This document shows positions 2,083 to 63,827 of a stretch of DNA of 64,000 nucleotides, in pieces. The notes beneath the pieces were generated by a model. That model was not told the DNA's origin and did no database searches. It worked only from the letters and a program-made list of their open reading frames with translations. A program made the translations under genes and the position numbers. The stretch covers positions 72,179 through 136,178 of the forward strand of contig CAZPYM010000003.1 of the NCBI GenBank assembly GCA_964590105.1. The letters run 5' to 3'. Position 1 is the first letter of the stretch. Each line of letters begins with the position of its first letter. This DNA comes from an uncultured Gammaproteobacteria bacterium. GTDB lineage: Bacteria; Patescibacteriota; Patescibacteriia; UBA11705; JABHMO01.

Positions 2083-2181
2083 TAATTATTGATTACGTGT
2101 TAATTATACTACAGTAGCTTGTTTTAACAAAATTATCAAGACTATGAACTATATACCTCACTACATTCCTTAAGTTCATGG

Positions 2182-2215
2182 CAAGTAAAAAAAACACAGC
2201 CGGTGAGGGCTGTGG
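2182..2215 (-). terminator. Rho-independent terminator for minus-strand gene 2227..2520
   Basis: Hairpin cacagcc-ggtgag-ggctgtg, followed on the minus strand by a T8 run. Confidence 0.6.
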
Positions 2216-2226
2216 TGGATTGTCAG

Positions 2227-2520
2227 TTATGCGGCGGCAGTAGTTTTATCTATGATGGTTTCTTCTCTTGTAAAAACATAAGAGGGGTTGAATTCATTGT
2301 GCTTGTAGACAAAGAATCTCGGCAGAGAGAATGAGTAATCGAAGTGCCGCAGATCCATTACGCAAGTGTTGCCTTCGTCAAGCCGCATCTGGATAGCGGA
2401 TATGTTTTTCTGAAGAGCCAGCGTAAGATGGACAACTTGGCTGGCAGTAATGGTAATTCCTTTCGCCGCAAGTGTTGCGGCAACGTGGGTCACATCATCA
2501 ATAATCGTCTGGTCTTCCAT
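2227..2520 (-). CDS. hypothetical small protein (97 aa)
   Basis: Intact ORF with a downstream terminator hairpin. No recognisable motifs. Confidence 0.45.
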   Translation of the reverse strand: MEDQTIIDDVTHVAATLAAKGITITASQVVHLTLALQKNISAIQMRLDEGNTCVMDLRHFDYSFSLPRFFVYKHNEFNPSYVFTREETIIDKTTAAA

Positions 2521-2883
2521 TGGGTCCTCCTGTTTTGTTCTTGTGTTACATTATATATTATCAATCTTTTATGTTTTGTCAATGGTGGTGATATTTTTTG
2601 TCTAATTTTGATGCATTCAAAACAAAAAACACAGCTTCGGAAGCCGTGTTTTTTTATTCTACTTTTTTATCGAACCTTGCTTAACGTCTTGATGCATTTT
2701 GTACACATAGTCATTCTTTTTCCGTCTACTTTTTTGCTTTGTAAATTCGGAAACTGGCGCCTTTTGGTGGCGACCTTTGAATGACTTCGTTGGTTGGCGG
2801 TGTTTGGACGCTTGCCGCATTTTTCGCAAATTTTTGCCATATTGAGTTTACTTATTTGTTAACTGGATATATACTATCATATG

Positions 2884-2892
2884 TGATATAAT
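2884..2892 (+). promoter_or_regulatory. extended -10 promoter element (TGaTATAAT) upstream of the S2P protease gene
   Basis: TGnTATAAT match about 90 nt upstream of the ATG at 2979. Confidence 0.35.
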
Positions 2893-2978
2893 TTGACAAG
2901 ATGCGTTAGTTGATTTGTTGATTCGTTAATTAGTTAATTGGTTGATTCGGACAAAAACTCATCTCTGTCAACAGAATT

Positions 2979-3647
2979 ATGATAATAATGAATTTAATTG
3001 ATCAGCCTCTGGTTTTGCTCGCCTGGGTCGCGGCCATAGTTTTTGTTTTGACTATCCATGAGTTTTCTCATGCGCTGGCCGCCACTGCACTCGGAGATCA
3101 GACAGCAAAAATGAATGGAAGATTAACGCTCAATCCATTATCTCATATTAGCTGGGTTGGTTTTGCCATGTTGCTTCTGGTCGGTTTTGGCTGGGGCAAG
3201 CCGGTGCCTTTCAACCCATACAATTTGAAATGGCCGAGATTTGGCCCGGCGGTAGTAGCCATAGCCGGCCCATTGTCAAATTTTATTTGCGCGGTGGTTT
3301 TCATTATCGCTTTCAAAATAATTTTTCCTGCCTTGCATCCGTTATTTCTAGCCTATGGTTATGAGGGTGGAAATTTAAATTTATTGGCAATTTTTCTGTC
3401 GCTGGCAATTTTTATCAACATTATTTTAATGTTATTCAATTTAATTCCTCTACCGCCGCTCGACGGTTCTAAGGTTTTATTTGCTTTTATTTCTGATGTT
3501 AAATATGCGGGCGTCAGGGAATCCTTGGAACATCAGGGACCATTAATATTAATGATGATAATAATCTTCGATAGCTTTTTAAACATCAATTTGCTTAGCC
3601 GTCTGCTTTACGGAGCAATAGACCTTGTTTATAAGTGGTTGCTCTAG
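2979..3647 (+). CDS. site-2 protease family zinc metalloprotease (peptidase M50)
   Basis: HEFSHA (HExxH) lies in the first TM helix, with multiple TM segments and an LPPLDG motif downstream. This is typical of SpoIVFB/RseP-like M50 peptidases. Confidence 0.75.
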   Translation: MIIMNLIDQPLVLLAWVAAIVFVLTIHEFSHALAATALGDQTAKMNGRLTLNPLSHISWVGFAMLLLVGFGWGKPVPFNPYNLKWPRFGPAVVAIAGPLSNFICAVVFIIAFKIIFPALHPLFLAYGYEGGNLNLLAIFLSLAIFINIILMLFNLIPLPPLDGSKVLFAFISDVKYAGVRESLEHQGPLILMMIIIFDSFLNINLLSRLLYGAIDLVYKWLL

Positions 3648-4143: not shown

Positions 4144-4204
4144 AATTGCTGATAATTGGTTTAATAGTTGATATCGGTGATTTTTTGTTCAAATCAAATT
4201 TAAA

Positions 4205-4252
4205 TCAACCAATTAACCAATTAACTAATTAACTAATTAACCAATCAACTAA
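4205..4252. repeat. tandem AATTAACY heptamer array (about 6 copies) in the rpsL-rpsG spacer
   Basis: caaccaattaaccaattaactaattaactaattaaccaatcaactaag. The reverse-complement copy lies at 2911-2950, with related copies at 36541-36568 (inside argS) and 63781-63825. Confidence 0.8.
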
Positions 4253-4353: not shown

Positions 4354-4851
4354 ATGAGAGGGAAACAAGCGCCAAAAAGAAAGTTAAAGCCGGACATTCG
4401 CTATAATTCTACTCTGGTGGCTAAATTTATAAATTATCTAATGAATGATGGCGACAAGTCTATCGCTCAAAAGGTGATTTATAATTGTTTTGATGAAATC
4501 GAAAAAATGATTGCAACCGGCAAGATCAATAAAGAAGAGTATCCCAATGCACTCAGTGTTTTTGATCAAGCAGTAAAAAATGTTACCCCTCAAATGGAGG
4601 TTCGCGGCCGGAGAATCGGCGGCGGAAACTACCAAATACCGTATCCTGTGCGCGGAGAGCGCCGGGTTTTTTTGTCTTTGCATTGGTTGATTACAGCGGC
4701 TAAAAATAAAAAAGGCAAGCCTATGTCAGTAAAATTGACAAATGAATTGGTGGCTGCTTTGAATAATGAGGGCGATGCAGTAAAAAAGAAAATGGACGTT
4801 CACCGTATGGCAGATTCTAATAGAGCTTTTGCTCACTTTGCGCGTTATTAA
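4354..4851 (+). CDS. rpsG: 30S ribosomal protein S7
   Basis: 165 aa with an S7 signature (…NALSVFDQAVKNVTPQMEVRGRRIGGGNYQIP…). Confidence 0.93.
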   Translation: MRGKQAPKRKLKPDIRYNSTLVAKFINYLMNDGDKSIAQKVIYNCFDEIEKMIATGKINKEEYPNALSVFDQAVKNVTPQMEVRGRRIGGGNYQIPYPVRGERRVFLSLHWLITAAKNKKGKPMSVKLTNELVAALNNEGDAVKKKMDVHRMADSNRAFAHFARY

Positions 4852-4934
4852 AAATAAAAATTGTACGAATATACGAATGTAATGCAATTGTTGCGAATAT
4901 GCGAATAAAACGAATTCATTAATCTGTAATTTGT

Positions 4935-4972
4935 GATTCGCGTCATTCGCACAAAGATTCGCGTCATTCGCA
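4935..4972. repeat. two direct copies of the 17-mer GATTCGCGTCATTCGCA (reverse complement of the dispersed GCGAATGAYGCGAAT motif)
   Basis: Copies at 4935-4951 and 4956-4972 sit just upstream of the fusA start. They create a spurious N-terminal extension ([15 protein letters not shown]) in the ORF track. Confidence 0.8.
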
Positions 4973-4983
4973 TCATAATTTAT

Positions 4984-7062
4984 ATGCCGAGAGAATATTC
5001 TTTAGAAAATACCAGAAATATAGGTATTATCGCTCACATTGATGCCGGTAAAACTACGGTTTCCGAGCGCATTTTATTTTACACTGGGAAAAAACATAAG
5101 ATAGGAGAAGTTCATGAAGGACAGGCGGAAATGGACTGGATGGAACAGGAAAAGGAAAGAGGCATCACTATTACTTCTGCCGCCACCACTTGTTTTTGGA
5201 ACGGCAAAAGAATTAATATTATCGACACTCCCGGCCACGTGGATTTTACCGCCGAAGTGGAACGATCTTTGCGTGTGCTTGATGGCGGCGTGATAGTTTT
5301 TGACGGCGTAGCCGGTGTGGAGCCGCAGTCTGAGACTGTATGGCATCAGGCCGTGAAATACAATGTTCCGCGCTTGGGATTTATTAATAAAATGGATCGC
5401 ATGGGCGCGGATTTTTATGCTGACATGGAATCTATTTATGAGAGATTGACCAAGGCCGCTCATCCTATTCAGTTGCCGATCGGCGCGGCTGAAACATTTA
5501 GAGGAATTATTGATTTATTTGAAAGGCGAGCTTACATTCATGAGGATGACCTCGGAATAAAAATTAATGAAATCGATGTTCCCGAAGACATGAAAGAAAA
5601 AACAGAAAAATACCGTGGAAAATTAGTCGAAGCTATAGTTGAAAACGATGAAGCTTTGATGGATAAATATTTAGCCGGAGAAGAAATCCCCGTCGCAGAC
5701 TTAAAAAGAGTTTTGCGCAAGGCGACAATAGAAAACAAAATTGTACCAATCTTAGTTGGCAGCGCTCTGAAGAACAAGGGAGTTCAGGCATTACTTGACG
5801 CGATTGTCGACTTTTTGCCCTCACCACTTGAAATTCCACCAATGCAGGGCACTGATCCAAACGATCCTGAAAAAGTCATTACTGTGAACGCCAGCGATGA
5901 AGAGCCTTTTGCCGGCTTGGCATTCAAGATTGCCACTGATCCATATGTTGGCAAGCTTTGTTTTGTGCGCGTTTACTCAGGAGCTTTAAGGTCAGGTTCA
6001 TATGTATTAAATACTTTCACTAATAATAAAGAGAGAATCGGACGTTTAGTGCGTATGCACGCCAATCATCGAGAGGAGGTTAGTGAAGCTTTTGCTGGTG
6101 AAATAGTCGCGGTTATTGGTTTGAAAAATACTTTTACAGGGCATACTCTTTGCGATGAGAGTCGACCGGTTATCCTGGAAAACATTGTATTTCCCGAGCC
6201 GGTTATTTCAGTTGCTATTGAACCGAAAACCAAGGCTGATCAGGAAAAAATGGGTATGGCTATGCAAAAATTGGCTGAAGAAGACCCGACCTTTAGAATT
6301 CGCACTGACGAAGAAACAATGCAAACAATTATTTCCGGCATGGGGGAACTTCATTTGGATATTTTGGTTGATCGAATGAAAAGAGAATTTGGTGTGGAAG
6401 CTAATATTGGTAAACCGCAAGTGGCTTATAAAGAAACAATTAAAAAGACTGCAGAAGCAGAGGGAAAATATGTTCGTCAGTCAGGTGGCCGCGGACAATA
6501 TGGTCATTGCTGGCTTAGAGTCTCTCCTCGAGAACGCGGAGAAGGATTTGAATTTTTGGATGAAGTCAAGGGGGGCGCAATCCCGCGAGAATTTATTCCG
6601 GCAATTCAAAAGGGAGTCAAAGAATCGTTAGACAAAGGAATTCTGGCGGGTTATCCGCTCATTGATGTTCAGGTCACTGTTTACGATGGTAGTTTCCATG
6701 ATGTTGACTCTTCTGAGGCGGCCTTTAAGATTGCCGGTTCTCTGGCTTTTCAGGAAGCCACAAAAAGAGCTTCCCTCGTTCTTTTGGAGCCGATTATGAA
6801 AGTGGAAGCTGTGGTGCCAGAAAAATTTTTGGGCGACGTGGTTGGTGATTTAAATTCAAAAAGAGCGCAAATAAATGAAATGAAAGATCGCGCAAATGCC
6901 AAGGTTGTTGAGGCTCAGGTGCCGCTGGCTGAAATGTTTGGTTATGCGACTTCACTCCGATCAATGACACAGGGGCGCGGCAGCTACTCAATGGAATTTC
7001 TAAAGTATTCTGAAGTCCCGGCCAATGTGGTTGAGGCAATCTTAGTCGCAAAGGGACGGTAA
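4984..7062 (+). CDS. fusA: elongation factor G
   Basis: Start chosen at [25 protein letters not shown] (G1 motif). Full-length EF-G with DTPGHVDF and NKMD motifs. Confidence 0.95.
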
Positions 7063-17682: not shown

Positions 17683-18261
17683 ATGATTAAAAAAAAGGAC
17701 AATAAAAAAGGATCAAGAGCAGGGAAAAAGCCAGAGCAAGAGTTTGAGCAAAAAATAATTGATTTAGCGAGAATTACTAGAGTAATGGCCGGTGGTAAAA
17801 GAATGCGTTTTCGCGCCTGTGTTTGCATCGGAGACAAAAAGGGTCGAGTAGCCATTGGATTGGCCAAGGGTGCTGACGTAACGGTAGCGGTTAACAAGGC
17901 GGTTAATAAGGCTCAAAAGCAGTGGATTACTGTACCGATAATTAATGAAACTATTCCGCACGAGATCCGTACTAAACTTGGGGCAGCCAGATTACTTCTA
18001 AAACCAGCGCCAACCGGAACAGGTGTACGCGCCGGTGGCGCAGTTCGCGTGGTCCTGGAATTGGCCGGTGTGCCGAATATTGTCGGAAAGATCATGGGGA
18101 CAAATAACAAGGTGAATAATGTAAAAGCATTGATCAGCGCTTTGTCGTCATTTAATCCTGACGCGATTAGAAAAGCCAGAAATAAACAACAAAAGAAAGA
18201 TAATAAAAATAAAGCTGAAGTGACTGAAGATAGCGTGAAGAAAGAAGAGGATAAGGAATAA
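17683..18261 (+). CDS. rpsE: 30S ribosomal protein S5 with a C-terminal extension
   Basis: ...ITRVMAGGKRMRFRACVCIGDKKGRVAIGLAKG... The next gene is rplO, so there is no intervening L30 gene. Confidence 0.93.
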   Translation: MIKKKDNKKGSRAGKKPEQEFEQKIIDLARITRVMAGGKRMRFRACVCIGDKKGRVAIGLAKGADVTVAVNKAVNKAQKQWITVPIINETIPHEIRTKLGAARLLLKPAPTGTGVRAGGAVRVVLELAGVPNIVGKIMGTNNKVNNVKALISALSSFNPDAIRKARNKQQKKDNKNKAEVTEDSVKKEEDKE

Positions 18262-18319
18262 AAATTAATAAAACAAGAAATTAAGAAAATAATAAGGAAT
18301 AAGAAAATAAGAATATAAT

Positions 18320-26913: not shown

Positions 26914-26989
26914 GCTCGTATAGCTCAGTGGTTAGAGCACCGCCCTTATAAGGCGGGGGTCGATGGTTCAAATCCATCTACGAGCACCA
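26914..26989 (+). tRNA. tRNA-Ile with anticodon UAU (as read from the loop CTTATAA)
   Basis: 76 nt cloverleaf: acceptor GCTCGTA/TACGAGC, D arm GCTC-AGTGGTTA-GAGC, anticodon stem CCGCC/GGCGG, T arm GATGG-TTCAAAT-CCATC, encoded CCA. The scaffold closely resembles bacterial tRNA-Ile(GAU) but has TAT in the anticodon. Confidence 0.75.
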
Positions 26990-30556: not shown

Positions 30557-30787
30557 ATTAATTTAGTAAAATTTAAAGCGCAAAGCCCAAAGTTCAAAGG
30601 AAATTTTAAATTTAAAGTCTAAAATTCGAAGATACGCCTTTGTTTTTTAATTTTAAGTTTTAAGTTTCCTTTTGATTTTGCTTTTTGAATTTTGAGCTTG
30701 GATATAGCATCTTAGCTAAATAAATGTATAGTGTCAAGGCATTAGCCCACACAATTCGTCACAAATGGGTGATTGTGTCAAATATAG

Positions 30788-30844: not shown

Positions 30845-33800
30845 ATGGAGATACCCAAAGCCTACGATCCGAAAGAGCATGAAAGCCGGATTTATAAAAT
30901 GTGGGAAGAGGCCGGGCTTTTTAATCCGGACAATTTGGAGCCTAAATCCAAAAAGCATTTTTCCATTGTTTTGCCGCCGCCAAATGTTACCGGCACACTG
31001 CACCTGGGGCATGCGGCCATGCTCGCAATAGAAGATTTAATGGTCCGTTACAAAAGGATGAATGGTTTTGATACCCTCTGGATGCCTGGCACTGATCACG
31101 CGGCGATTGCCACGCAAAACGTGGTTGAAAAAAAGCTTTACAAGGAAGAAAAAAAGACCAGGCACGATCTGGGTCGTGAGAAATTTTTAAAAAAAGTTGA
31201 GCAGTATGTGGAAGGCTCAAAAAATGTTATTCATAATCAATTGCGCAAAATGGGTTCAAGCCTGGACTGGAGCCGCGAAGCGTATACTCTCGATGAAGTC
31301 AGAAGCAAGGCAGTAAAAAAGGTTTTCAAACAAATGTATGAAGACGGGCTGATTTATCGGGGTTATCGGATTGTCAATTGGTGTCCGCGCTGCCATTCAA
31401 CGCTCGCGGACGATGAGGTTGATTACAAAGAAGAAAAAGCCAAGATTTACACTTTTAAATACGATAAAAATTTTCCATTTGCTATCGCCACAACGCGGCC
31501 GGAAACCAAACTTGGGGACACGGCAGTGGCTGTGCATCCTGACGACAAGCGCTATGCAAAATATATCGGTAAAACATTTGTCGCTGATTTCTGTGGTGTT
31601 AAGTTGAATATAAAAGTAATTGCCGATGATCAGGTTGAAAAAGATTTTGGCACCGGCGCGCTTGGCGTAACCCCGGCGCATAGTTTGATTGACTACGAAA
31701 TGGCGCAAAAAAATAAATTGCCGGTGATTAAAGTTATTGACGAGGATGGAAAAATAACGGTGGCTGGCGGAAAATTTCAGGGATTAAGCGCGGAACAGGC
31801 AAGAGAAAAAATTGTTGAAGAATTAAAAAAGCAGGGGCTTTTGGAAAAGCAGGAAGAGAATCAGCACAATTTATCTGTTTGTTACCGTTGTAAATCAGTA
31901 GTGGAGCCTTTGCCGAGCGAGCAATGGTTTATCAGTATAAGTTCAAAGTTCAAAGTTAAAAGTGAAAAGTTGAGAAAAATAATCGGGAAAAAAGAGGCAA
32001 GCTTGAAGGAAATTTCGCTCGCCGTGGTAAAGAGCGGGTCGATAAAAATAATTCCAGAGCGTTTTGAAAAAATTTATTATCATTGGATGGAAAATTTGCA
32101 TGACTGGTGTATTTCCCGGCAGATTTGGTTTGGGCACAGGATCCCTGTTTGGTACAAAAAGCAAAAACAAATTATTGTTTTGCGGCACGGACAGGCGGAA
32201 AGCAATGCCCGAGATCAGCTGAATTCCGATATTTTGCGGAATCATTTTCACTTGACCGTAGAGGGTAGGGAGCAGGCGGCCGCGGCGGCGGAAGAGCTGC
32301 AAAAAGAAAAAATTGACATTATTTTTTGTTCTGATTTCGAACGGGCAAAACAAACCGCCAAAATAGTTGCCGACAAATCGGGGATTAAGCAAATTATTGA
32401 AGACGCCAGACTCAGGGAAGTGGGAGTGGGGGATTTCGAAGGCAAATCCGATATGGACTTTACCAAATTTCGTCAGCAAAACTTTGACAAGTGGCATAAA
32501 GGAAATCCGCATAACATCGAGTCCTTTGTTGAATTAAGAAGCCGTGTATTTAATTTTCTTGACGAAATAAAACAAAAGTATGGAGATAAAAAGATTTTAA
32601 TGGTAACGCACGGCGATGTGGCGCGAGTGGCGCAGGCATACGGAAAAATTTTATCGGATAAAGAAATTTATGGCCTTGATTATCCGGATACCGGAAAGTT
32701 TTATCGCGTTGATTTAAATCAAAAAACATCTGGAATCGAACTTAGTTTTCGTAATCGAAAAATATTTGAAGCGATTAAATCCGGCAGCAAAACCATTGAA
32801 ACCAGAGCTTTGAATCCTGAAGAGCCGGATCGTTATTTTGGCAATATTAAAGGCGGCGATCAGATAATTTTGAATTATAAGCAAGGGGAGTATATTTTAG
32901 AAAGTTTAAAATCAAAAGTCAAAGCGGCGAGGCGGTACAAAACCATTGAAGAATTGTTAGCCAAGGAAAAGATGTCTAAAATTTTTCCCGGCAAAAACAT
33001 TGATTATAAAAAATCCTATTCTGATCTGGTGCCCGGAAATTTGGAAAAAATAAGCAAGAACGGAATAATAGCTTTTGAGCTTGGAAAAGTTGAAAAGTAT
33101 AATAAAAATATCACGCTTCGCGTTTCTGAAGAAGAACTGCCGGCTGCCGAATGGAAACAAGATGAGGATACTCTTGATACCTGGTTTTCTGCAGGTCTTT
33201 GGACTTTCAGTACGCTCTTGCCGAAGGATTGGGACGGAAAAGAATTTAAATCCAAGGATTTGGAACGATTTCATCCAACGACCGTGCTGGAAACCGGTTA
33301 TGACATTTTGTTTTTCTGGGTGGCGAGGATGATACTCATGACCACTTATGCGACGGGCGAAATACCTTTTGAAACAGTTTATCTGCACGGCCTGATTCGC
33401 GACAAAGACGGCGACAAAATGAGCAAATCCAAACCAGAGACGGCGATTGATCCGGTTGAAGCCGGCAATAAATATGGATTTGACGCGGTGCGTTTGAGCT
33501 TGCTTATCGGCAATACGGCGGGCAATGATATTCGGCTTTATGATGAAAAGATTGAGGGGTACAGGAATTTTGTTAATAAGTTGTGGAATATTAGTCGGTT
33601 TGTGTTGCAAAATAACAAATTACAAGACACAAATTACAAGCAAATTACAAATAACAAATTACAAACAGTTGCATTGACTTTAGCGGATAAGTGGATACTT
33701 TCGCGATTCAATAAGTTAAAATGCGAGGTAAATAAATTGCTGGATGAATATAATTTTTCACAGGCCGGCGAGATTTTGCGGGAATTTACCTGGAATGATT

Positions 33801-34483
33801 TTGCCGACTGGTATTTGGAAATTTCAAAAGTTGCCCTTCGGCAAGATCAGGGTGACAATCGAAATTTAATTTTGAATTCAATTTTTCGGGAATTGCTGAA
33901 ATTGTGGCATCCTTTTGTGCCGTTTGTGACAGAGGCTGTTTGGTCCCTCGCTATGCTCGGGATGACACAGCAAGCAAAAAGTATTATGGTTTCTGATTGG
34001 CCAGCGGTCGAAAAGGGATTAATTGATGAAAAAGCGGAAAAAGGATTTGAAAAAATTCAAGAAATAATTATTAAAATCAGAAATTTGCGGGCTGAATACA
34101 AAGTCAATCCGGGGAAGAAGATTTCTGTTTCCATCAAAGGCGCTTCAATTGGCGAAAATGAAATAGTTGTAAAAACCTTAGCTCGTCTGGAAAAAATTAC
34201 TTACGTAAAAATAAAACCGGAAAAAGCAGCCGGCGCGGTTGTCGGTAAAAGGGAGATTTATTTGTTGTTATCAGATTTGGTTGATGTTGATAAAGAAAAA
34301 GAGAGACTGGAAAAAGAAAAAGCCGACCTTGAAAAATATTGCTTCGGATTGGATAAAAAACTTCAGAATAAAGAGTTTACGAAAAATGCTCCGGTGGCCG
34401 TGGTTGACGGAGAGCGGGCAAAACTCACGGAGGCGGAAGAAAAATTAGGAAAAACAAATACGCAATTAAGTGAATTAAAATAA
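30845..34483 (+). CDS. valS: valyl-tRNA synthetase carrying an in-frame histidine-phosphatase (PGAM-like) + ASCH domain insertion
   Basis: HLGHA (HIGH), CP1 editing domain (TTRPETKLGDTAVAVHPDD), DWCISRQIWFGHRIPVWY, KMSKS, and a C-terminal coiled coil. Between WY (about 32154) and QDEDTLDTWFS (about 33158) about 330 extra residues contain IVLRHGQAESN and VTHGD (histidine phosphatase) and G-SKTIETR (ASCH). Length is 1212 aa against roughly 880 typical. Confidence 0.9.
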   Translation: MEIPKAYDPKEHESRIYKMWEEAGLFNPDNLEPKSKKHFSIVLPPPNVTGTLHLGHAAMLAIEDLMVRYKRMNGFDTLWMPGTDHAAIATQNVVEKKLYKEEKKTRHDLGREKFLKKVEQYVEGSKNVIHNQLRKMGSSLDWSREAYTLDEVRSKAVKKVFKQMYEDGLIYRGYRIVNWCPRCHSTLADDEVDYKEEKAKIYTFKYDKNFPFAIATTRPETKLGDTAVAVHPDDKRYAKYIGKTFVADFCGVKLNIKVIADDQVEKDFGTGALGVTPAHSLIDYEMAQKNKLPVIKVIDEDGKITVAGGKFQGLSAEQAREKIVEELKKQGLLEKQEENQHNLSVCYRCKSVVEPLPSEQWFISISSKFKVKSEKLRKIIGKKEASLKEISLAVVKSGSIKIIPERFEKIYYHWMENLHDWCISRQIWFGHRIPVWYKKQKQIIVLRHGQAESNARDQLNSDILRNHFHLTVEGREQAAAAAEELQKEKIDIIFCSDFERAKQTAKIVADKSGIKQIIEDARLREVGVGDFEGKSDMDFTKFRQQNFDKWHKGNPHNIESFVELRSRVFNFLDEIKQKYGDKKILMVTHGDVARVAQAYGKILSDKEIYGLDYPDTGKFYRVDLNQKTSGIELSFRNRKIFEAIKSGSKTIETRALNPEEPDRYFGNIKGGDQIILNYKQGEYILESLKSKVKAARRYKTIEELLAKEKMSKIFPGKNIDYKKSYSDLVPGNLEKISKNGIIAFELGKVEKYNKNITLRVSEEELPAAEWKQDEDTLDTWFSAGLWTFSTLLPKDWDGKEFKSKDLERFHPTTVLETGYDILFFWVARMILMTTYATGEIPFETVYLHGLIRDKDGDKMSKSKPETAIDPVEAGNKYGFDAVRLSLLIGNTAGNDIRLYDEKIEGYRNFVNKLWNISRFVLQNNKLQDTNYKQITNNKLQTVALTLADKWILSRFNKLKCEVNKLLDEYNFSQAGEILREFTWNDFADWYLEISKVALRQDQGDNRNLILNSIFRELLKLWHPFVPFVTEAVWSLAMLGMTQQAKSIMVSDWPAVEKGLIDEKAEKGFEKIQEIIIKIRNLRAEYKVNPGKKISVSIKGASIGENEIVVKTLARLEKITYVKIKPEKAAGAVVGKREIYLLLSDLVDVDKEKERLEKEKADLEKYCFGLDKKLQNKEFTKNAPVAVVDGERAKLTEAEEKLGKTNTQLSELK

Positions 34484-36244: not shown

Positions 36245-37960
36245 ATGTTAGAGATAAAAAATAAATTAGCAAAAGTGCTTAGTGAGATTTTAAAGGTGGA
36301 AATCAATCCGGAAGATTTTACCGAGCCGCCGAAAAATGTTGAAGCAGACCTGGCTTTGCCGTGTTTTACTTTGGCCAAGGAACTAAGACGCGATCCGAAT
36401 GAGATTGCCGGCGAGTTGGGAGCAATGGTCAATGCGAAAAATTTAGTTATTATTGAAAAAGTAAAGTCGCTCGGCCCTTATATGAATTTTTTTATTGATT
36501 CGGAATATTTGGCGCAAGCTGTTTTATATTCTCAATTAACGAATGAACCAATTAACCAATTAACTAAAATCATGGTAGAATTTGCGCATCCAAATACGCA
36601 CAAAGCATTTCATATCGGGCATTTGCGAAATATTATTACCGGCGAATCAATTGTCCGGATTTTGCAAAACGCTGGATACAAAGTTACCCGGGCGAATTAT
36701 CAGGGTGATGTCGGTCTGCATATTGCCAAGGCGCTCTGGGGAATTGATCAGCTTCGGAATGAATACAAAGAAGTTAAGAAAAAGGACTTAGACGATAAAG
36801 TCGGGTTTTTGGGCAAAGCCTATGCGCTTGGCGGCCAGACATTTGAAAAAGATGAAAAAGCAAAACAAGAAATTTACAAGTTGAATGAAAAAATTTATAA
36901 CAAAGAAAAGTCGATTCAAGATGTTTATAAAACAACCAGGGCTTGGAGCCTGGAATATTTTGATAAAGTTTACAAACGAGTTGATTCACACTTTGACAGG
37001 TTATATTTTGAATCCGAGGTTTTTGAAAAGGGAAAACAAATTGTTTTGAAGTTTCTGGAAAAGGGCGTATTCAAGAGAAGCGAGGGCGCGGTCATATTTG
37101 AAGGTGAAAAATATGGCTTGCACAGCCGCGTTTTTGTCAATAGTTTGGATTTTCCGACTTACGAAGCCAAAGATCTGGCGCTGGCTGAAGCGCAGTTCAA
37201 AGAGTTTAAGCCGGACAGAATTATTCATGTTGTCGGCAAAGAACAAACAGAATATTTCAAGGTAGTATTTAAAGCACTTGAATTTACCCTACCGAAAAGC
37301 AAGGGCAGGGAAGAGCATCTGGCTTACGGCTGGGTTTCTTTGAAGTCCGGCAAAATGAGTTCGCGAACCGGGCAAGTTATTTTGGGCGAATGGCTTTTGG
37401 ATGAGATTGAAAAAAGAATTGCGGCAATTATGAAAGATAGTCCAGCGAAAGATAAGGATTTAATTATTAAAAAAGTTGCGTTGGCGGCTGTTAAATACGC
37501 GATGCTAAAGATTGGCGTCAAAGTTGATATGGCTTTTGATATTGAAGAATCCGTGAATACTTCTGGCGACAGTGGACCGTATTTACTTTACATTGTGGCG
37601 AGGATAAAGAGCATTTTGAAAAAGGTAAAGGGTAAAAGTGAAAAGCATGCCCTGAGCATGGTCGAAGGGTTAAAAGGAATTGAATCAATTAAGATAAATG
37701 AATATGAAAAAAGTTTGCTTTTAAAAGTGGCAAAGTTTGAGGAGGCGCAAGAGCTGGCGGCAAAAGAGCTGGATCCGTCGCAAATTGCCAAATACTTGTT
37801 TGAACTGGCGCAGGAATTCAATGGTTTTTATCACGAGTGTCCGGTATTGCAAGCTGAACAGGCTATTCAGGCATTTAGAATCAATTTAATAAAAAAAGTT
37901 GAGCAGACAATGACCAAAGGTCTAAATTTACTTGGAATCGAGCCTGTTGATGAAATGTAG
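36245..37960 (+). CDS. argS: arginyl-tRNA synthetase
   Basis: HPNTHKAFHIGHLRN (HIGH) and GKMSSRTG (KMSKS). An in-frame AACCAATTAACCAATTAAC repeat at 36541-36568 encodes EPINQLTK. Confidence 0.92.
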   Translation: MLEIKNKLAKVLSEILKVEINPEDFTEPPKNVEADLALPCFTLAKELRRDPNEIAGELGAMVNAKNLVIIEKVKSLGPYMNFFIDSEYLAQAVLYSQLTNEPINQLTKIMVEFAHPNTHKAFHIGHLRNIITGESIVRILQNAGYKVTRANYQGDVGLHIAKALWGIDQLRNEYKEVKKKDLDDKVGFLGKAYALGGQTFEKDEKAKQEIYKLNEKIYNKEKSIQDVYKTTRAWSLEYFDKVYKRVDSHFDRLYFESEVFEKGKQIVLKFLEKGVFKRSEGAVIFEGEKYGLHSRVFVNSLDFPTYEAKDLALAEAQFKEFKPDRIIHVVGKEQTEYFKVVFKALEFTLPKSKGREEHLAYGWVSLKSGKMSSRTGQVILGEWLLDEIEKRIAAIMKDSPAKDKDLIIKKVALAAVKYAMLKIGVKVDMAFDIEESVNTSGDSGPYLLYIVARIKSILKKVKGKSEKHALSMVEGLKGIESIKINEYEKSLLLKVAKFEEAQELAAKELDPSQIAKYLFELAQEFNGFYHECPVLQAEQAIQAFRINLIKKVEQTMTKGLNLLGIEPVDEM

Positions 37961-39365: not shown

Positions 39366-39480
39366 AATTTATACGAATAATGCGAATATGTATGCGAATG
39401 ATGCGAATTGCGAATAACGCGAATAGTATAGTTCGTAATATTCGCGATTTGCGATATTCGTATTAAAATTCGCGAAATTC
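39366..39480. repeat. cluster of GCGAAT/ATTCGC-type repeats, including the core ATGCGAATGATGCGAATT at 39393-39410
   Basis: Dense, both-orientation GCGAAT hexamers upstream of the ferredoxin gene. The same 15-18-mer recurs at 39696-39715 and 52975-52994, and as a reverse complement at 4935-4972. Confidence 0.8.
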
Positions 39481-39494
39481 GCGTTAAACTATTT

Positions 39495-39680
39495 ATGACA
39501 CCAAAAGTAAATCAAGAAACTTGCATCGGTTGCGGCACTTGCGCCGCCGTTGCTGTAGATGTGTTCAAAATGAATGATGCCGGTAAAGCGGAAGTGATTG
39601 CCGGGGATTTTGCCGGCAAAGAAGATTTGATAAATCAGGCGAAGGATGCTTGTCCGGTACAGGCGATTACAGTAGAGTAA
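39495..39680 (+). CDS. small ferredoxin (single-cluster, Pyrococcus-type)
   Basis: 61 aa, CIGCGTC ... CP motif. Confidence 0.7.
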   Translation: MTPKVNQETCIGCGTCAAVAVDVFKMNDAGKAEVIAGDFAGKEDLINQAKDACPVQAITVE

Positions 39681-39760
39681 CACGAATGAGCCGCAACGCG
39701 AATGACGCGAATTAGAAGTTTATATGATTGTCAGGCTGATTCGTGTCATTCGTGTCGAGT
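39681..39760. repeat. GCGAAT-family repeat cluster downstream of the ferredoxin (ACGCGAATGACGCGAATTAG, and the inverse-orientation variant GATTCGTGTCATTCGTGTCG)
   Basis: Shares a 17/18-nt core with 39393-39410 and 52975-52994. It contains both orientations. Confidence 0.8.
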
Positions 39761-39782
39761 CTGTTTATTCGTATTTATTTAT

Positions 39783-39868
39783 GCCCAGGTGGTGGAATCG
39801 GTATACACACATGGTTGAGGGCCATGGCTCTTCGGGGCGTGCGGGTTCAAGTCCCGCCCTGGGCACCA
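39783..39868 (+). tRNA. tRNA-Leu (anticodon GAG), class II with a long variable arm
   Basis: 86 nt. Acceptor GCCCAGG/CCTGGGC, anticodon loop TTGAGGG, variable arm GCTCTTCGGGGC, T arm GCGGG-TTCAAGT-CCCGC, encoded CCA. Confidence 0.8.
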
Positions 39869-47983: not shown

Positions 47984-48030
47984 ATTGTAATTTGTAATTT
48001 TTGCTTTATCGTTTGTAATTTGTTTTTGTA
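47984..48030. repeat. TTGTAATT tandem/dispersed repeat array
   Basis: ttgtaatttgtaattt ... tttgtaatttgtttttgtaatttgtaatc. The reverse complement of this motif occurs in frame inside valS (33611-33668). Confidence 0.75.
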
Positions 48031-48049
48031 ATTTGTAATCTAAACTATT

Positions 48050-49027: not shown

Positions 49028-49173
49028 AGGAAAAGCACAAATCACAAAATCCAAAACTCGAAGGAAATTCCAAATCTAAAATTCACAAATCATTTTGGAA
49101 TTTTGAATTTTGCGCTTTGAATTTAAGTCTTCAGTACGCGGTAATCGCGTTAAACATTAATCTTCCATACACT

Positions 49174-49965
49174 ATGGAGTTGAGCATAATAATTTTAAAT
49201 TACAAAATGAAGGGCTTGGTTAAAAATTGCGTCAAGACTATTTTTGAGTCTGAATTTGATCAGCCCTATGAAATAATTGTTGTGGATAATAATTCCGGCG
49301 ATGGAGTTGAAGCTATGCTTCAGGAGAGATTTCCACAAGTTAAATTTATCCAAACCGGCGCAAACCTGGGAATGGGCGCGGGAAACAACGCCGGAATTAA
49401 TGCAGCGCTGGGAAAATATGTTTTAATAATGAATCCTGATATTTTTGTGTCCAGGGATTCTTTGCAAAAACTTTATGATTATATTAGCCAGCGGTCTGAT
49501 GTTGGTCTGGTGGCGCCGCGCTTGTTAAATCCCGACAAAACCTTGCAATACACGTGCTATCGCTGGCATAAATTTTTAACGCCGGCTTTGCGACGTACTT
49601 TTTTTGGTAAAATTAAATGGGCGCAGAAAGAGTTGGATCGTTTTTTAATGCGGGACTGGGATCATGCATCAACTCGTGAAGTAGATTGGATCCAGGGCTC
49701 GTGCCTGCTCATTCCTAAAAAAGTGATTGATGAAGCCGGAGCTTTTGACGATCGTTTTTTTATGTATTTTGAGGATACTGATCTTTGTCGGCGAATTCGA
49801 AAAGCCGGATACAAAAATGTTTATTTGGCAGAGGCTGAAGTTGTTCATCTGCACCGCCGCCAGTCAGCTGATCAGAGCGGCCTGAAGTCTTTGTTCAGCA
49901 AACTGACCAGGATTCATATTGCCAGCTGGATGAAGTATATGTTGAAGTGGAAGGGGGAAAGTTAA
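49174..49965 (+). CDS. family 2 glycosyltransferase
   Basis: MELSIIILNYKMKGLVKNC...IIVVDNNSGDG... Confidence 0.8.
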   Translation: MELSIIILNYKMKGLVKNCVKTIFESEFDQPYEIIVVDNNSGDGVEAMLQERFPQVKFIQTGANLGMGAGNNAGINAALGKYVLIMNPDIFVSRDSLQKLYDYISQRSDVGLVAPRLLNPDKTLQYTCYRWHKFLTPALRRTFFGKIKWAQKELDRFLMRDWDHASTREVDWIQGSCLLIPKKVIDEAGAFDDRFFMYFEDTDLCRRIRKAGYKNVYLAEAEVVHLHRRQSADQSGLKSLFSKLTRIHIASWMKYMLKWKGES

Positions 49966-50046
49966 AAGTTAAAAGGTAAAAGGGGAAAAGGGAAAAGGTA
50001 AAAGGTAAAAGGGGAAAAGGGAAAAGGGAAAGGGGAAAAGGGAAAA
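49948..50046. repeat. tandem heptamer minisatellite (GGKAAAA)x~14 with G3-4 tracts
   Basis: gttaaaa gttaaaa ggtaaaa ggggaaaa gggaaaa ggtaaaa ggtaaaa ggggaaaa gggaaaa gggaaa ggggaaaa gggaaaa gggaaaa. It begins at the stop of the GT2 gene and ends before a terminator hairpin. Confidence 0.9.
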
Positions 50047-50058
50047 GGGAAAAGTAAG

Positions 50059-52805: not shown

Positions 52806-52974
52806 GGGACGCGAAATAACGCTAAACTAAAAGCAAAACAACGCGAAACTACGCTAAGAAGAGAGCGTTTTTTTTGTTGAAAAATGGCATAATAAGTGGA
52901 TAAATTGTCGCTTTGTTTAATCGGGTTTTGTGTGGTAAAATGGAGGCGAAAGAAACATCACGAATAACTCAAAA

Positions 52975-52994
52975 CATGCGAATGATGCGAATTA
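52975..52994. repeat. copy of the dispersed GCGAATGAYGCGAATTAG motif upstream of dnaE
   Basis: atgcgaatgatgcgaattag, compared with 39393-39410 and 39696-39715. Confidence 0.75.
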
Positions 52995-53098
52995 GGAAGG
53001 CAAAATAAAGAGAAATACAGTGAATAGAAGTGTAATAATTAGCTCAGAATCGTTCCATGTTTCCTGTCACGTGTTTCGTGTTATGTGATTAATAATTC

Positions 53099-56000
53099 GT
53101 GTTTATGAAATATACCCCTCTCCATGTCCACAGCCATTATTCATTGCTTGACGGCCTGACCAAGATTGACGATCTGGTGGGCAAAGCAAAAGAAGACGGC
53201 ATGACTGCGCTCGCATTGACCGACCACGGTGTGATGTATGGCGCGATTGAGTTTTATCAAAAATGCAAAGCCGCGGGCATCAAGCCGATAATCGGCGTGG
53301 AAGCGTATATTGTTAATGATCGAAAGGAAAAGAAAGCGTCTGAAGAAGAGCGCTTTCATTTGATTTTATTAGCCAAGAATTACGAAGGGTACAAAAATCT
53401 GATCAAGCTGACAACGCTCGCTCATTTGGAAGGATTTTATTACAAGCCGCGCATTGATTGGGAGATTCTGCGGAAATATAGTAAAGGACTTATTGGTTTA
53501 TCTGCTTGTCTGGCCGGCGAAATACCGCGGGCGATTACCAGGGGGCTCGACGACGAGAAAATTGAATTAGTAATAAAAAAATATTTAAATGTTTTTGGCA
53601 AAGACAATTTTTATCTGGAAGTCCAGCACCATCCGAATATCCCTGATCAAAAAGTGGTAAATAATAAAATTTTTGAAATAGCCAAGCGCTTGGGATTGGA
53701 AGTCGTGGCCACGAATGACAGCCATTATTTAAATACAGAAGATGCGGAAGCGCATGATATTTTAATCTGCCTTCAAACAAAAAAATTGCTCAGTGATACT
53801 GACCGCATGAGCTATCTTGGCGAAGATTTTTCTTTGTATACTTCACAGCAGATGACTGACAATTTTCGCGGCAATCCGGAAGTTCTGGAGAACACCAATA
53901 AGATTGCGGATAAATGTGAAATAGAAATTCCGCTTGGCGAGATCAGATTGCCGTACTTTGAAGTACCGGAAGGGCAAACTGATTTTGAGTGTTTGCGTGA
54001 CCTTTGTTATCACAATATAGCCCGCCGCTATAATTTTGATTATAAAAAAGAGCAATTAATTGAAGCTGAAAAAAAAGTTATCGGCCGATTGGAATTTGAG
54101 CTCGGCGTTATTCAGCGCACCGGTTACTCTTCATATTTTTTGATTGTGCAGGATTTTACCAGCTGGGCGAGAAGCAAAGGGATCATTGTTGGACCTGGCC
54201 GCGGCTCGGCAGCCGGGAGCATAGTTTCATATTTGCTTGGCGTGACCAATTTGGATCCACTTCAATATGATTTGTTGTTTGAAAGATTTTTAAATCCGGA
54301 CCGTATTTCAATGCCTGATATTGATATTGATTTTGCTGATGAACGCCGCGCTGAAGTTATTCATTATGTCGAAGAAAAATACGGCAAAGATCACGTGGGC
54401 CAGATTATTACTTTTGGCACAATGGCCGCCCGGGCGGCGGCGCGCGACGTGGGCCGGGTGCTCGACATGCCGTATACGTTTTGCGATCAGGTGGCCAAAT
54501 TGATTCCAATGGGAATTAAACTGGATGAAGCTATCAACAAGGTAGTTGAAGTCAAAGAATTATATCGCAGCAATGATGATGCCCGGCGGCTTTTGGATTT
54601 CGCCCGCAAGCTGGAAGGCGTGGCCAGACATGCTTCCACGCATGCTTGCGGCGTGGTTATTACCAGAGAGCCGCTGGATAATTATTGTCCCTGTCAATTT
54701 GCCAGAGATCAGGAAGACGTAATCGTCACTCAGTATTCACTTCATCCGGTTGAAGATCTCGGCCTTTTGAAAATGGATTTTTTGGGTTTAAAAAACCTGA
54801 CTATTATCGAGAGAGCCTGTGAAATTGTGGAAAAAATGCATGGACAAAAAATAGTTATTGATGATTTGCCTCTGGGGGACATAAAAGCTTACGAACTGTT
54901 TCAGAACGGTCAGACAACCGGTGTTTTTCAATTTGAATCGAGCGGCATGAAAAGATATTTAAAACAGTTAAAACCGACGGAATTCGAAGACCTGATCGCC
55001 ATGGTCGCGCTCTATCGTCCGGGACCGCTTAATTCCGGCATGGTGGATGAATTTATTGCCAGAAAGCATGGCTTGAAAAAAATTGCCTATGTTCATCCGT
55101 TGATGGAAAACGCTTTGAAAAATACTTACGGCGTTATTGTTTATCAAGAGCAGGTCATGCAGCTTTCAAAAGATATGGCCGGTTTTACCGGCGGTCAGGC
55201 GGACACTTTGCGCAAAGCTATAGGAAAGAAAATCGCCGACTTGATGGAAAAAATGAAAACTGTATTTATTGAAGGCTGTATAAAAAATAACATTTCCAAG
55301 CAAATAGCTGAGCAGACATTTGAATCAATGGAAAAGTTCGCAGAATACGGATTTAATAAATCCCATGCCGCTTGTTATGCGCTCATTGCTTATCAGACGG
55401 CATTTCTTAAAGCAAATTTTCCTACTGAATTTATGGCGGCCCTTCTTACTTCAGATCAGGGAAATTTGGACAGAGTGGCAATTGAAATTGATGAATGTCA
55501 GCAGATGGGAATAGAAATTATGCCGCCAAGTATTAATGAAAGTTATTCCACTTTTACTGTAGTCGCCGATTCATTAAAACAAGGAACTCCAAGAATTCGT
55601 TTTGGCTTGAACGCAATTCGTAATGTCGGAGAAAACGTGGCCAGAGAGATTATTCATGAAAGAAAAGACAACGGCGCGTATATAGAACTGGAAGATTTTT
55701 GCAGCCGGCTCGGCAACCGGGCGCTGAATAAAAAATCTCTTGAAGGATTGATAAAAAGTGGCGCCATGGATCTTTTTGGTTCGCGTTCACAGCTGTTGGA
55801 TAATGTTGATAAAATTATAATGTTTATTCGAGAGGTTGAAGCGTCGCGCGCAACAAAACAGGTAAATATTTTTGATTTAAATAATTCACCTGACGCAACT
55901 TTACCGCGCATATTGCTCCGTCAGAGCAAAGATCTGGGACTCAAGCAAATACTTGCCTGGGAAAAAGAATTTTTGGGATTATACGTATCAGAGCATCCGT

Positions 56001-58704: not shown

Positions 58705-59017
58705 CGGGCACTCATTCTTGTCATTTCGACCATCGTGGAGAAATCACAAGAATGGAGAAGGGATTTCTCGACTCCTCCTTCGTCGTCGCTCGAAATGACA
58801 AAAATGGGGAAGCGGACGTCGCTCGAAATTGCCAAAGATCTTGGCTATGTTTCAGAATATGAATATAAAGTTCTGCTCGAACAGTCCATTAAAGTCCACA
58901 AAATCACCAAGGGCTTAATAAAGAGGACTCGCTCCCTCTCAACATGATTTATGCTTCATTCTTCATGTTTCATGCTTAATTCATAATTCATTATTCATAA
59001 TTCATACTTCAAATTTT

Positions 59018-63712: not shown

Positions 63713-63745
63713 GAAGGTAAAAGCTAAAAAGTAAAAGTTAAAAGT
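63713..63745. repeat. GTAAAAG-type heptamer repeats (same family as 49948-50046)
   Basis: gagaaggtaaaagctaaaaagtaaaagttaaaag. Confidence 0.6.
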
Positions 63746-63827
63746 TTTCGTCAAGGATAAATTCGTCTATGGCGAAAAGCAAGTTAACCAATTAGCTAGT
63801 TAGCTAATCAACTAGTCAACTGCCATA

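Follow-up and report, generated by a model that had tools for sequence, protein, structure and literature searches.

Dispersed palindromic repeats with tandem-word arms in a 64-kb patescibacterial sequence: probable REP/BIME-like stem-loops at gene ends

The DNA analysed here is a stretch of 64,000 nucleotides (the window; positions 72,179 to 136,178 of contig CAZPYM010000003.1, assembly GCA_964590105.1) from an uncultured bacterium whose nearest named relatives are Candidatus Falkowbacteria and Kuenenbacteria, members of the Patescibacteria or candidate phyla radiation (CPR). A gene on its plus strand (39495..39680) encodes a 61-aa 4Fe-4S ferredoxin (Pfam Fer4_13, 2.8e-16), preceded by a DAGK gene and followed by a gene for tRNA-Leu(GAG) (39783..39868, plus strand; ARAGORN and Rfam); these genes are the context of the element under study, and the ferredoxin gene is not part of it. 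The element is a repeat of the hexamer GCGAAT and its complement ATTCGC, clusters of which bracket the ferredoxin gene at 39374-39481 and 39683-39771, just as the original prediction, made from the letters alone, had described. Further clusters occur between rpsG and fusA and upstream of dnaE, and the identities proposed for the latter two genes (elongation factor EF-G and the alpha subunit of DNA polymerase III) were confirmed together with that of the ferredoxin. The S7 protein encoded at 4354-4851 (P0001) is identical to one on a 594-kb contig, and in seven contigs that carry an identical ferredoxin the repeats are 100% identical, with no strain-level variation.

The repeat had been introduced as five copies of a specific 17-18-mer, always close to gene starts. 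The sequence that occurs exactly five times is a 15-mer, GCGAATGAYGCGAAT, found at 4936-4950 and 4957-4971 on the minus strand and at 39394-39408, 39698-39712 and 52978-52992 on the plus strand; a sixth match, with one mismatch, lies at 39410-39424. Its expectation in dinucleotide-preserving shuffles is 0.01, and six matches were reached in 0 of 100 shuffles. Only two sites, 39392-39409 and 52976-52993, match the 18-mer ATGCGAATGAYGCGAATT exactly; the remaining three copies have one or two mismatches, and the positions first given were 1-2 nt off at some sites. The hexamer GCGAAT is not enriched over the window as a whole (49 occurrences versus 59 expected); 18 of the 49 are located inside four spacers that sum to 657 bp, or 1% of the window (binomial P about 1e-23). 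The non-random part of the claim for a functional element is thereby upheld, as the clusters constitute a genuine dispersed non-coding repeat family. Proximity to gene starts is real in this co-directional genome, but the preceding stop codons are equally near.

Within the clusters, forward NCGAAT words come first and inverted ATTCGN words follow, a polarity that had previously gone unreported and because of which a cluster can form a long hairpin. The word patterns are +++++---- at 4866-4970, ++++++---- at 39374-39481, +++--- at 39683-39771 and +++ only at 52961-52992; three of the four clusters are thus long imperfect palindromes, equivalent to hairpins of 90-110 nt, and these hairpin copies abut stop codons.

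Inverted-repeat and fold analysis delimited a hairpin that fills the DAGK-ferredoxin spacer (39374..39481, plus strand), with arms of 50 nt: the left arm (39374-39424) consists of six NCGAAT words at spacings of 9, 12, 9, 7 and 9 nt, and the right arm (39432-39481) consists of ATTCGC and ATTCGT words. When folded as RNA, this hairpin has a minimum free energy of -49.4 kcal/mol on the plus strand (z -5.6) versus -32.3 kcal/mol on the minus strand (z -2.8), with eight G-U pairs in the sense and one in the antisense orientation (8 versus 2 with a slightly wider spacer). The same analysis delimited a hairpin that fills the ferredoxin-tRNA-Leu spacer (39682..39772, plus strand), with the left arm CACGAAT..CGCGAATGACGCGAAT (39682-39715) and the right arm GATTCGTGTCATTCGTG..ATTCGT (39736-39772), past the end of which the tRNA begins after 10 nt; its tail, ATTTATTTAT, is U-rich. 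The minimum free energy in this case is -40.9 kcal/mol on the plus strand (z -6.1) and -28.7 kcal/mol on the minus strand, with seven sense versus two antisense G-U pairs. The two ferredoxin-flanking hairpins together have 15 sense versus 3 antisense G-U pairs, because of which they fold far better on the sense strand. AT-biased mutation is expected to yield both C-to-T and G-to-A changes, and in these two hairpins the changes retained are only those that preserve pairing in the sense transcript.

The third hairpin, identified in the same way in the rpsG-fusA spacer (4866..4972, no strand assigned), has a left arm of ACGAAT and GCGAAT words (4866-4915) and a right arm of two identical 17-mers, GATTCGCGTCATTCGCA, at 4935-4951 and 4956-4972. 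The fourth cluster, found by word scan upstream of dnaE (52961..52993, plus strand), is a half element of three forward words, CACGAAT .. ATGCGAATGATGCGAATT, whose only inverted partners are degenerate (TTTCGTG and ATTCGTG, at 53075-53101). A terminator-like site (52851-52868) and a promoter-like site both precede this copy, which is therefore placed in the dnaE 5′ leader. Only tRNAs reached the Rfam gathering score in the window, and sub-threshold matches (E<=10) comprised only tRNAs and noise, with nothing credible for the window elements or for one acidobacterial copy. A terminator consensus scan called none of the three window hairpins, detecting only two small sub-stems inside the DAGK-ferredoxin hairpin; canonical terminators with a short GC-stem and a T-run are also present in the same window.

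The spacers concerned were compared with those of related genomes. The gene order DAGK-ferredoxin-tRNA-Leu is kept in seven related contigs, with or without the repeats; among L248-L254 and L262, which have this order at 61-75% DAGK identity, the majority are devoid of GCGAAT repeats. The DAGK-ferredoxin spacer contains another, different GCGAAT-word hairpin in L249 and only a small remnant hairpin in L250, and is short and repeat-free in L248. The hairpins of the ferredoxin-tRNA spacer are built from CAAAAT/ATTTTG words in L248 and L250 and from CTAAA/TTTAG words in L251 and L254, those of L249, L252 and L262 being plain; at all six orthologous loci analysed (the window and five relatives) the hairpin in this spacer is sense-favoured, although the sequences differ. 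The rpsG-fusA spacer, which is 133 nt long in the window, is 24-32 nt long and empty in three relatives, and in a fourth it measures 85 nt and holds a GTGAG/CTCAC-word hairpin. The words therefore turn over at conserved positions.

A scan for the 15-mer over one genome per species returned at least 120 stretches. Among the matches listed, about 55 are lone 15-mers compatible with chance, and two or more inverted words within 150 nt were found downstream in 32 of 133 genome matches versus upstream in 4. In viral contigs, which served as a negative control, the corresponding numbers were 2 of 122 downstream versus 2 upstream; the viral 15-mers were rejected as instances of the element, being coding ANDAND-type repeats or chance occurrences with hairpin architecture at control level. 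A plasmid BLAST search with an acidobacterial copy gave no match. The hairpin-bearing phyla among the matches listed are Acidobacteria (Holophagaceae, Solibacteraceae), Verrucomicrobia, Planctomycetes, Chloroflexi, Armatimonadetes and Gemmatimonadetes, joined by a Treponema, an uncultured gammaproteobacterium and a Saccharibacterium. These copies have the consensus (A)ACCGCGAATGACGCGAATGnnCGCGAATrAA - loop - TTyATTCGCGnnCATTCGCGTCATTCGCGGTT. Word spacing is irregular (7-20 nt), but in many copies one arm mirrors the spacings of the other, and the same patterns tend to reappear inside a lineage: [9,10] in four copies from Acidobacteria, [9,8,9] in Chloroflexi, and [10,10]/[10,9] in two copies of one Verrucomicrobia genome. 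The loops, of 4-128 nt, are unrelated between copies.

For 21 of these CGCGAAT hairpins the gene context was determined: convergent genes flank 7 of them, divergent genes flank none, and the other 14 have same-direction genes or only one callable flank. The distance from the stop codon to the hairpin is 3-50 nt for most of the 21 copies. The neighbouring genes are ordinary housekeeping or metabolic genes without a functional theme, and no transposase was found among the 20 flanking proteins scanned. The 12 nt past the stem contain 137 T residues versus 73 expected (1.9-fold); in some copies the T-runs are clear and the A/T flanks bidirectional. In an unbiased scan for inverted repeats, these loci also yielded hairpins of the same design built from other words, namely CACCAAGA, CCATCCCCT, CCAATGACC, GATGAAA, ATGAACA, GTGATGAAC, GAACAGAGG and GGCAGTRG.

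The replacement of one word by another was followed in an operon of Holophagaceae, argG - 351-aa gene - argC - aminotransferase, in five species (L068, L269-L272), of which L068 and L270 are sisters (ArgC 88.7% and 351-aa protein 93.4% identical). The argC-downstream spacer holds a word hairpin in all five, built from CGCGAAT in L068, ACAGGATG in L270, GTGAGCAGAG in L269 and L272, and CATCTGTG in L271. In the spacer between argG and the 351-aa gene, L068 has a CGCGAAT hairpin and L270 shares a GGTCCTTGG hairpin with the outgroup L271; because the latter is common to sister and outgroup, the CGCGAAT family has replaced a resident hairpin in the L068 lineage. The 351-aa gene and argC overlap by the four nucleotides ATGA in three species, and are separated in L068 and L270 by a spacer of 170-195 nt with homologous hairpins, in which GTGATGAA/TTCATCAC in one corresponds to GTGAGGA/TCCTCAC in the other, the same compensatory change being present in all three units of both arms. 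These unit changes are concerted evolution with pairing maintained. Across the operon (L068 reverse strand 900-3440), word hairpins are gained, lost or swapped at all three intercistronic sites among species that are 79-93% identical.

These observations suggest that the GCGAAT clusters are probably dispersed palindromic repeats comparable to repetitive extragenic palindromic (REP) sequences and bacterial interspersed mosaic elements (BIMEs), with tandem-word arms, and that they would operate as RNA 3′-end or intercistronic stem-loops. The hairpins with such arms form a dispersed family with a REP-like placement. Of the three functions offered in the original prediction, a transcription-factor operator, an RNA-level motif and a mobile repeat resembling a miniature inverted-repeat transposable element (MITE), the RNA-level motif is the best fit, given the long stem-loops, the sense-strand G-U bias and the placement at gene ends, and a 3′-end, intercistronic or processing stem-loop is its most likely form. 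An arm consists of 2-6 tandem copies of a word of 7-10 nt, (C)GCGAAT plus a spacer of 2-5 nt, and the second arm of the inverted array, so that the transcript or single-stranded DNA can fold into a stem of 25-50 bp with a variable loop. The copies lie in transcribed spacers just past stop codons (rpsG|fusA, DAGK|fdx and fdx|tRNA-Leu), and that in the dnaE leader is a decayed half copy. Such a stem-loop may mark or protect the 3′ end of the upstream message, attenuate read-through, or, as a double-strand processing site, allow the ferredoxin message to be separated from tRNA-Leu. The Holophagaceae locus leads us to infer that units turn over by slippage and that one arm is corrected against the other, and its L068 lineage demonstrates that the CGCGAAT family can spread to further hairpin sites within a genome, displacing the hairpin already there.

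Many words besides GCGAAT are used in this way, in this genome and elsewhere. Within the window, arrays or hairpins of other 7-9 nt words occupy further spacers: AATTAACC at 4203-4252 and its complement at 2906-2947; TTGTAAT at 47985-48039; GGAAAAG/AAGGTAA at 49951-50054; TTCATAA at 58943-59015; hairpins of CAAAAT type at 30645-30695 and 49031-49124; and further arrays or hairpins at 18257-18318 and 63714-63826. Several of these words are found at more than one window locus. An in-frame AAATTACAA word array that encodes NNKLQDTNYKQITNNKLQ (33610-33665) occupies a variable loop of ValRS (30845-34483), a protein of 1212 aa that also contains a histidine-phosphatase (PF00300) match, and a similar in-frame CAATTAAC array (36533-36564) occupies a variable loop of ArgRS. 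The window also encodes a tRNA-Ile with the anticodon TAT (UAU) at 26914-26989; a UAU tRNA-Ile is an uncommon bacterial means of reading AUA, which is usually read by a lysidine-modified CAU tRNA.

In the other genomes, many unrelated word hairpins have a common (A)ATGA(A/C) core, which invariably occupies the 5′ arm and is matched by TCAT in the 3′ arm, e.g., GCGAATGAC; such hairpins are located at L048 302-407, L265 about 790-900, L068 2099-2235, L065 2871-2937, L049 330-397 and L070 3987-4086. In L048, L060 and L102, the stop codon of the preceding gene is the starting point of an array or lies within it. Long one-directional arrays of (C)GCGAATGAC-like units were observed in a Planctomycete (L118 2090-2282, 12 copies) and in an Anaerolineae contig that ends within the array (L100 3899-4101, at least 9 copies). 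In a member of the Gemmatimonadaceae (L073 4440-4960), a unit of about 400 bp, composed of a CGAAT word array and an adjoining conserved flank, occurs twice in tandem. In other CPR contigs, GCGAAT arrays adjoin or enclose a CCTCTCC...GGAGAGG hairpin (L044 760-1080, L093 about 5780-6030, L070 about 1100-1150), resembling the nested or mosaic repeats found in BIMEs.

Several observations count against a REP/BIME-like RNA stem-loop. Copies were counted in the 64-kb window and a further 10 kb, with four sites in the former and none in the latter. The rpsG-fusA hairpin folds more weakly than those beside the ferredoxin gene and slightly better in the antisense orientation (-37.0 kcal/mol on the minus versus -33.5 kcal/mol on the plus strand), and the dnaE copy, located in a 5′ leader, has no significant hairpin (z -0.3 on the plus and -0.4 on the minus strand). 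Across phyla, fold stability has no consistent strand bias (10 sense versus 7 antisense), and the sense-strand G-U bias was discarded as a universal signature. Many copies have no proper U-tract and hence are not canonical intrinsic terminators. The hallmarks of REPs are missing, with no unpaired GTAG/CGTC tag and no RAYT gene seen in the window or among the flanking proteins scanned, and the occurrence of an identical word in many phyla is more than a purely structural role would explain.

The alternatives differ in which of these data they can accommodate. It had been proposed that the ferredoxin gene and tRNA-Leu form a mobilised unit, the two clusters being the ends of a cassette that carries the ferredoxin gene with or without the tRNA; a small gene bracketed by similar repeats invites this reading, but because the DAGK-ferredoxin-tRNA-Leu order persists in relatives, most of them without GCGAAT repeats, the pair is not a mobilised unit. 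Each cluster is, moreover, a complete hairpin rather than one end of a larger inverted pair, and the same repeat is present in the rpsG-fusA spacer of the ribosomal str operon, so that a cassette can be virtually dismissed. A DNA operator array, in which a transcription factor or nucleoid protein would bind GCGAAT half-sites and co-regulate fusA, fdx, tRNA-Leu and dnaE, could account for the position of all four window sites upstream of genes, for half-sites that are partly 9 and 21 bp apart, and for words that are better conserved than the intervening spacers and that persist in L249, where protein identity to the window is 71%. However, the motif is absent upstream of the orthologous ferredoxin gene in five of seven relatives (e.g., L248, L250, L252 and L262) and upstream of fusA in all three examined (L263-L265), and these spacers are empty or hold hairpins of other words, which makes an operator very unlikely. 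The use of quite different words by sister species at the same sites, the irregular word spacing and the lack of a functional theme among the flanking genes are equally at odds with co-regulation, as is the location of copies elsewhere past stop codons, often between convergent genes and never in divergent promoter regions.

A non-autonomous mobile element similar to a MITE or REPIN, whose CGCGAAT arrays would be the ends bound by a transposase encoded elsewhere, is improbable. The replacement of a resident hairpin in one Holophagaceae lineage, the several near-identical arm sets per genome, the fixed polarity, the spacing patterns that tend to recur within lineages, and a multi-phylum distribution suggestive of horizontal spread would all be explained in this way. 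On the other hand, no defined terminal repeats were found, no target-site duplication is visible (the flanks only extend the palindrome), and there is no conserved interior, the word arrays being all that the copies have in common. Furthermore, the loops are unrelated and range from 4 to 128 nt, none of the 21 copies adjoins a transposase, half elements and arrays of variable unit number are common, the hairpin is at control level in viral contigs and absent from plasmids in the BLAST search with the acidobacterial copy, and the carriers include small CPR genomes. It is unlikely, finally, that the hairpins are functionless by-products of slippage and quasi-palindrome template switching, which would make and homogenise arrays wherever they are harmless, i.e., in spacers past stop codons and in permissive protein loops. 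The many kinds of word arrays that fill window spacers, the in-frame arrays within ValRS and ArgRS loops, the arrays without inverted partners (L118, L100, L020, L043), the variable presence among relatives and the concerted word change are all in line with neutral origin. What it fails to predict is that a hairpin is kept at the orthologous position despite complete sequence turnover (6/6 ferredoxin-tRNA and 5/5 argC-downstream spacers), together with the sense-strand G-U bias of the ferredoxin hairpins, the T-enriched tails, the strict forward-then-inverted polarity (32 versus 4 among the matches listed) and the sharing of one word across phyla.

The known systems closest to the GCGAAT family are REP sequences or palindromic units (PUs), BIMEs and REPINs, which are likewise dispersed extragenic palindromes, often arranged as inverted pairs that form long hairpins. 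In enterobacterial PU/REP elements, position can be conserved while the sequence is lineage-specific. A function as RNA stem-loops, in termination or in stabilising mRNA, is attributed to REPs, similar to the role proposed here. They are found downstream of open reading frames, between genes of the same direction or convergent genes and rarely between divergent genes (PMC3733652); the placement of the CGCGAAT family past stop codons, with 0 of 21 copies between divergent genes, matches this pattern. A REP is a single imperfect palindrome of 8-20 bp, whereas the arms of the GCGAAT family are tandem arrays of a 7-10 nt word, and the window elements are dispersed, extragenic and palindromic but 90-110 nt long, compared with the 20-40 bp palindrome by which REPs are defined. 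No GTAG was found at the element ends, and CGTC occurs only within a paired arm, in GCGTCATTCGC; no RAYT (Y1 HUH transposase) was detected among the 20 flanking proteins scanned or noticed in the window; and none of ATTCGCG, CGCGAAT, CGTCATTC and GAATGACG appears in the supplements of PMC3733652. REP sequences are usually specific to a species or genus, whereas the CGCGAAT word occurs in at least seven phyla, and its loops are not conserved.

Other comparisons are more distant. Short tandemly repeated repetitive (STRR) sequences of cyanobacteria, whose origin and function are not known, are tandem repeats of 7-nt words that fall into several families and are scattered over intergenic regions. 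They are described as direct arrays from heterocystous cyanobacteria, whereas the arrays described above are typically paired with an inverted array to form a hairpin and occur in CPR, Acidobacteria, phyla of the Planctomycetes-Verrucomicrobia-Chlamydiae (PVC) group, Chloroflexi and others. Intrinsic terminators, including inverted pairs of DNA uptake sequences (DUS/USS) and Correia elements, share the stem-loop directly past genes and the T-enriched tail, but the stems of the word hairpins are far longer (25-50 bp), repetitive and sequence-constrained. MITEs are likewise small, non-coding, dispersed and palindromic, and replacement or invasion occurred at one site at least in the present data; they differ in having terminal inverted repeats, target duplications, uniform length, a conserved interior and a parent insertion sequence. 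Integron attC sites were rejected, as the bases next to the acidobacterial AAC...GTT ends do not fit RYYY/RRRY, the PVC and Chloroflexi copies have no AAC/GTT, the words are direct repeats within an arm, and the flanks are core operon genes. Likenesses to the CGAAT Type III restriction site (HinfIII), the Helicobacter DnaA box TCATTCAC, arrays of Fur hexamers and the cleavage preference of RuvC are, we assume, coincidental. The family is best classified among extragenic palindromes of the REP/BIME kind, as a variant with a new structure. Literature full-text searches found the exact 15-mer and its complement in 0 papers and nothing relevant for looser words, although a family described under another name or as a logo could escape such searches. 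A broader view, which we put forward tentatively and hold to be possible rather than probable, is that CGCGAAT-word hairpins, and tandem-word hairpins more generally, form an undescribed pan-bacterial extragenic class, in which words change in concert and word families invade and overwrite resident sites. The identity of the word across phyla would imply that a sequence-specific factor is conserved (a protein that binds the word or an enzyme that copies it), that the word has spread widely by horizontal transfer, or that lineages have converged on a favoured word.

The analysis removes a tempting regulatory or mobile-cassette reading of the window and accounts for a large part of the unusual, repetitive DNA found in the spacers of a small CPR genome. 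At the two loci checked in sister species (the CPR ferredoxin and the Holophagaceae arg operon), the same hairpin design is found at the same sites with different words, a pattern that points to a widespread, apparently unannotated way to build and renew gene-end stem-loops. Should the stem-loops set the 3′ ends of transcripts or the sites of processing, they would bear on operon and terminator prediction in phyla where, to our knowledge, canonical terminators are difficult to find. What carries a single word family from locus to locus and from phylum to phylum lends itself to testing, and the concerted change of words would offer a clean system for studying the homogenisation of palindromes.

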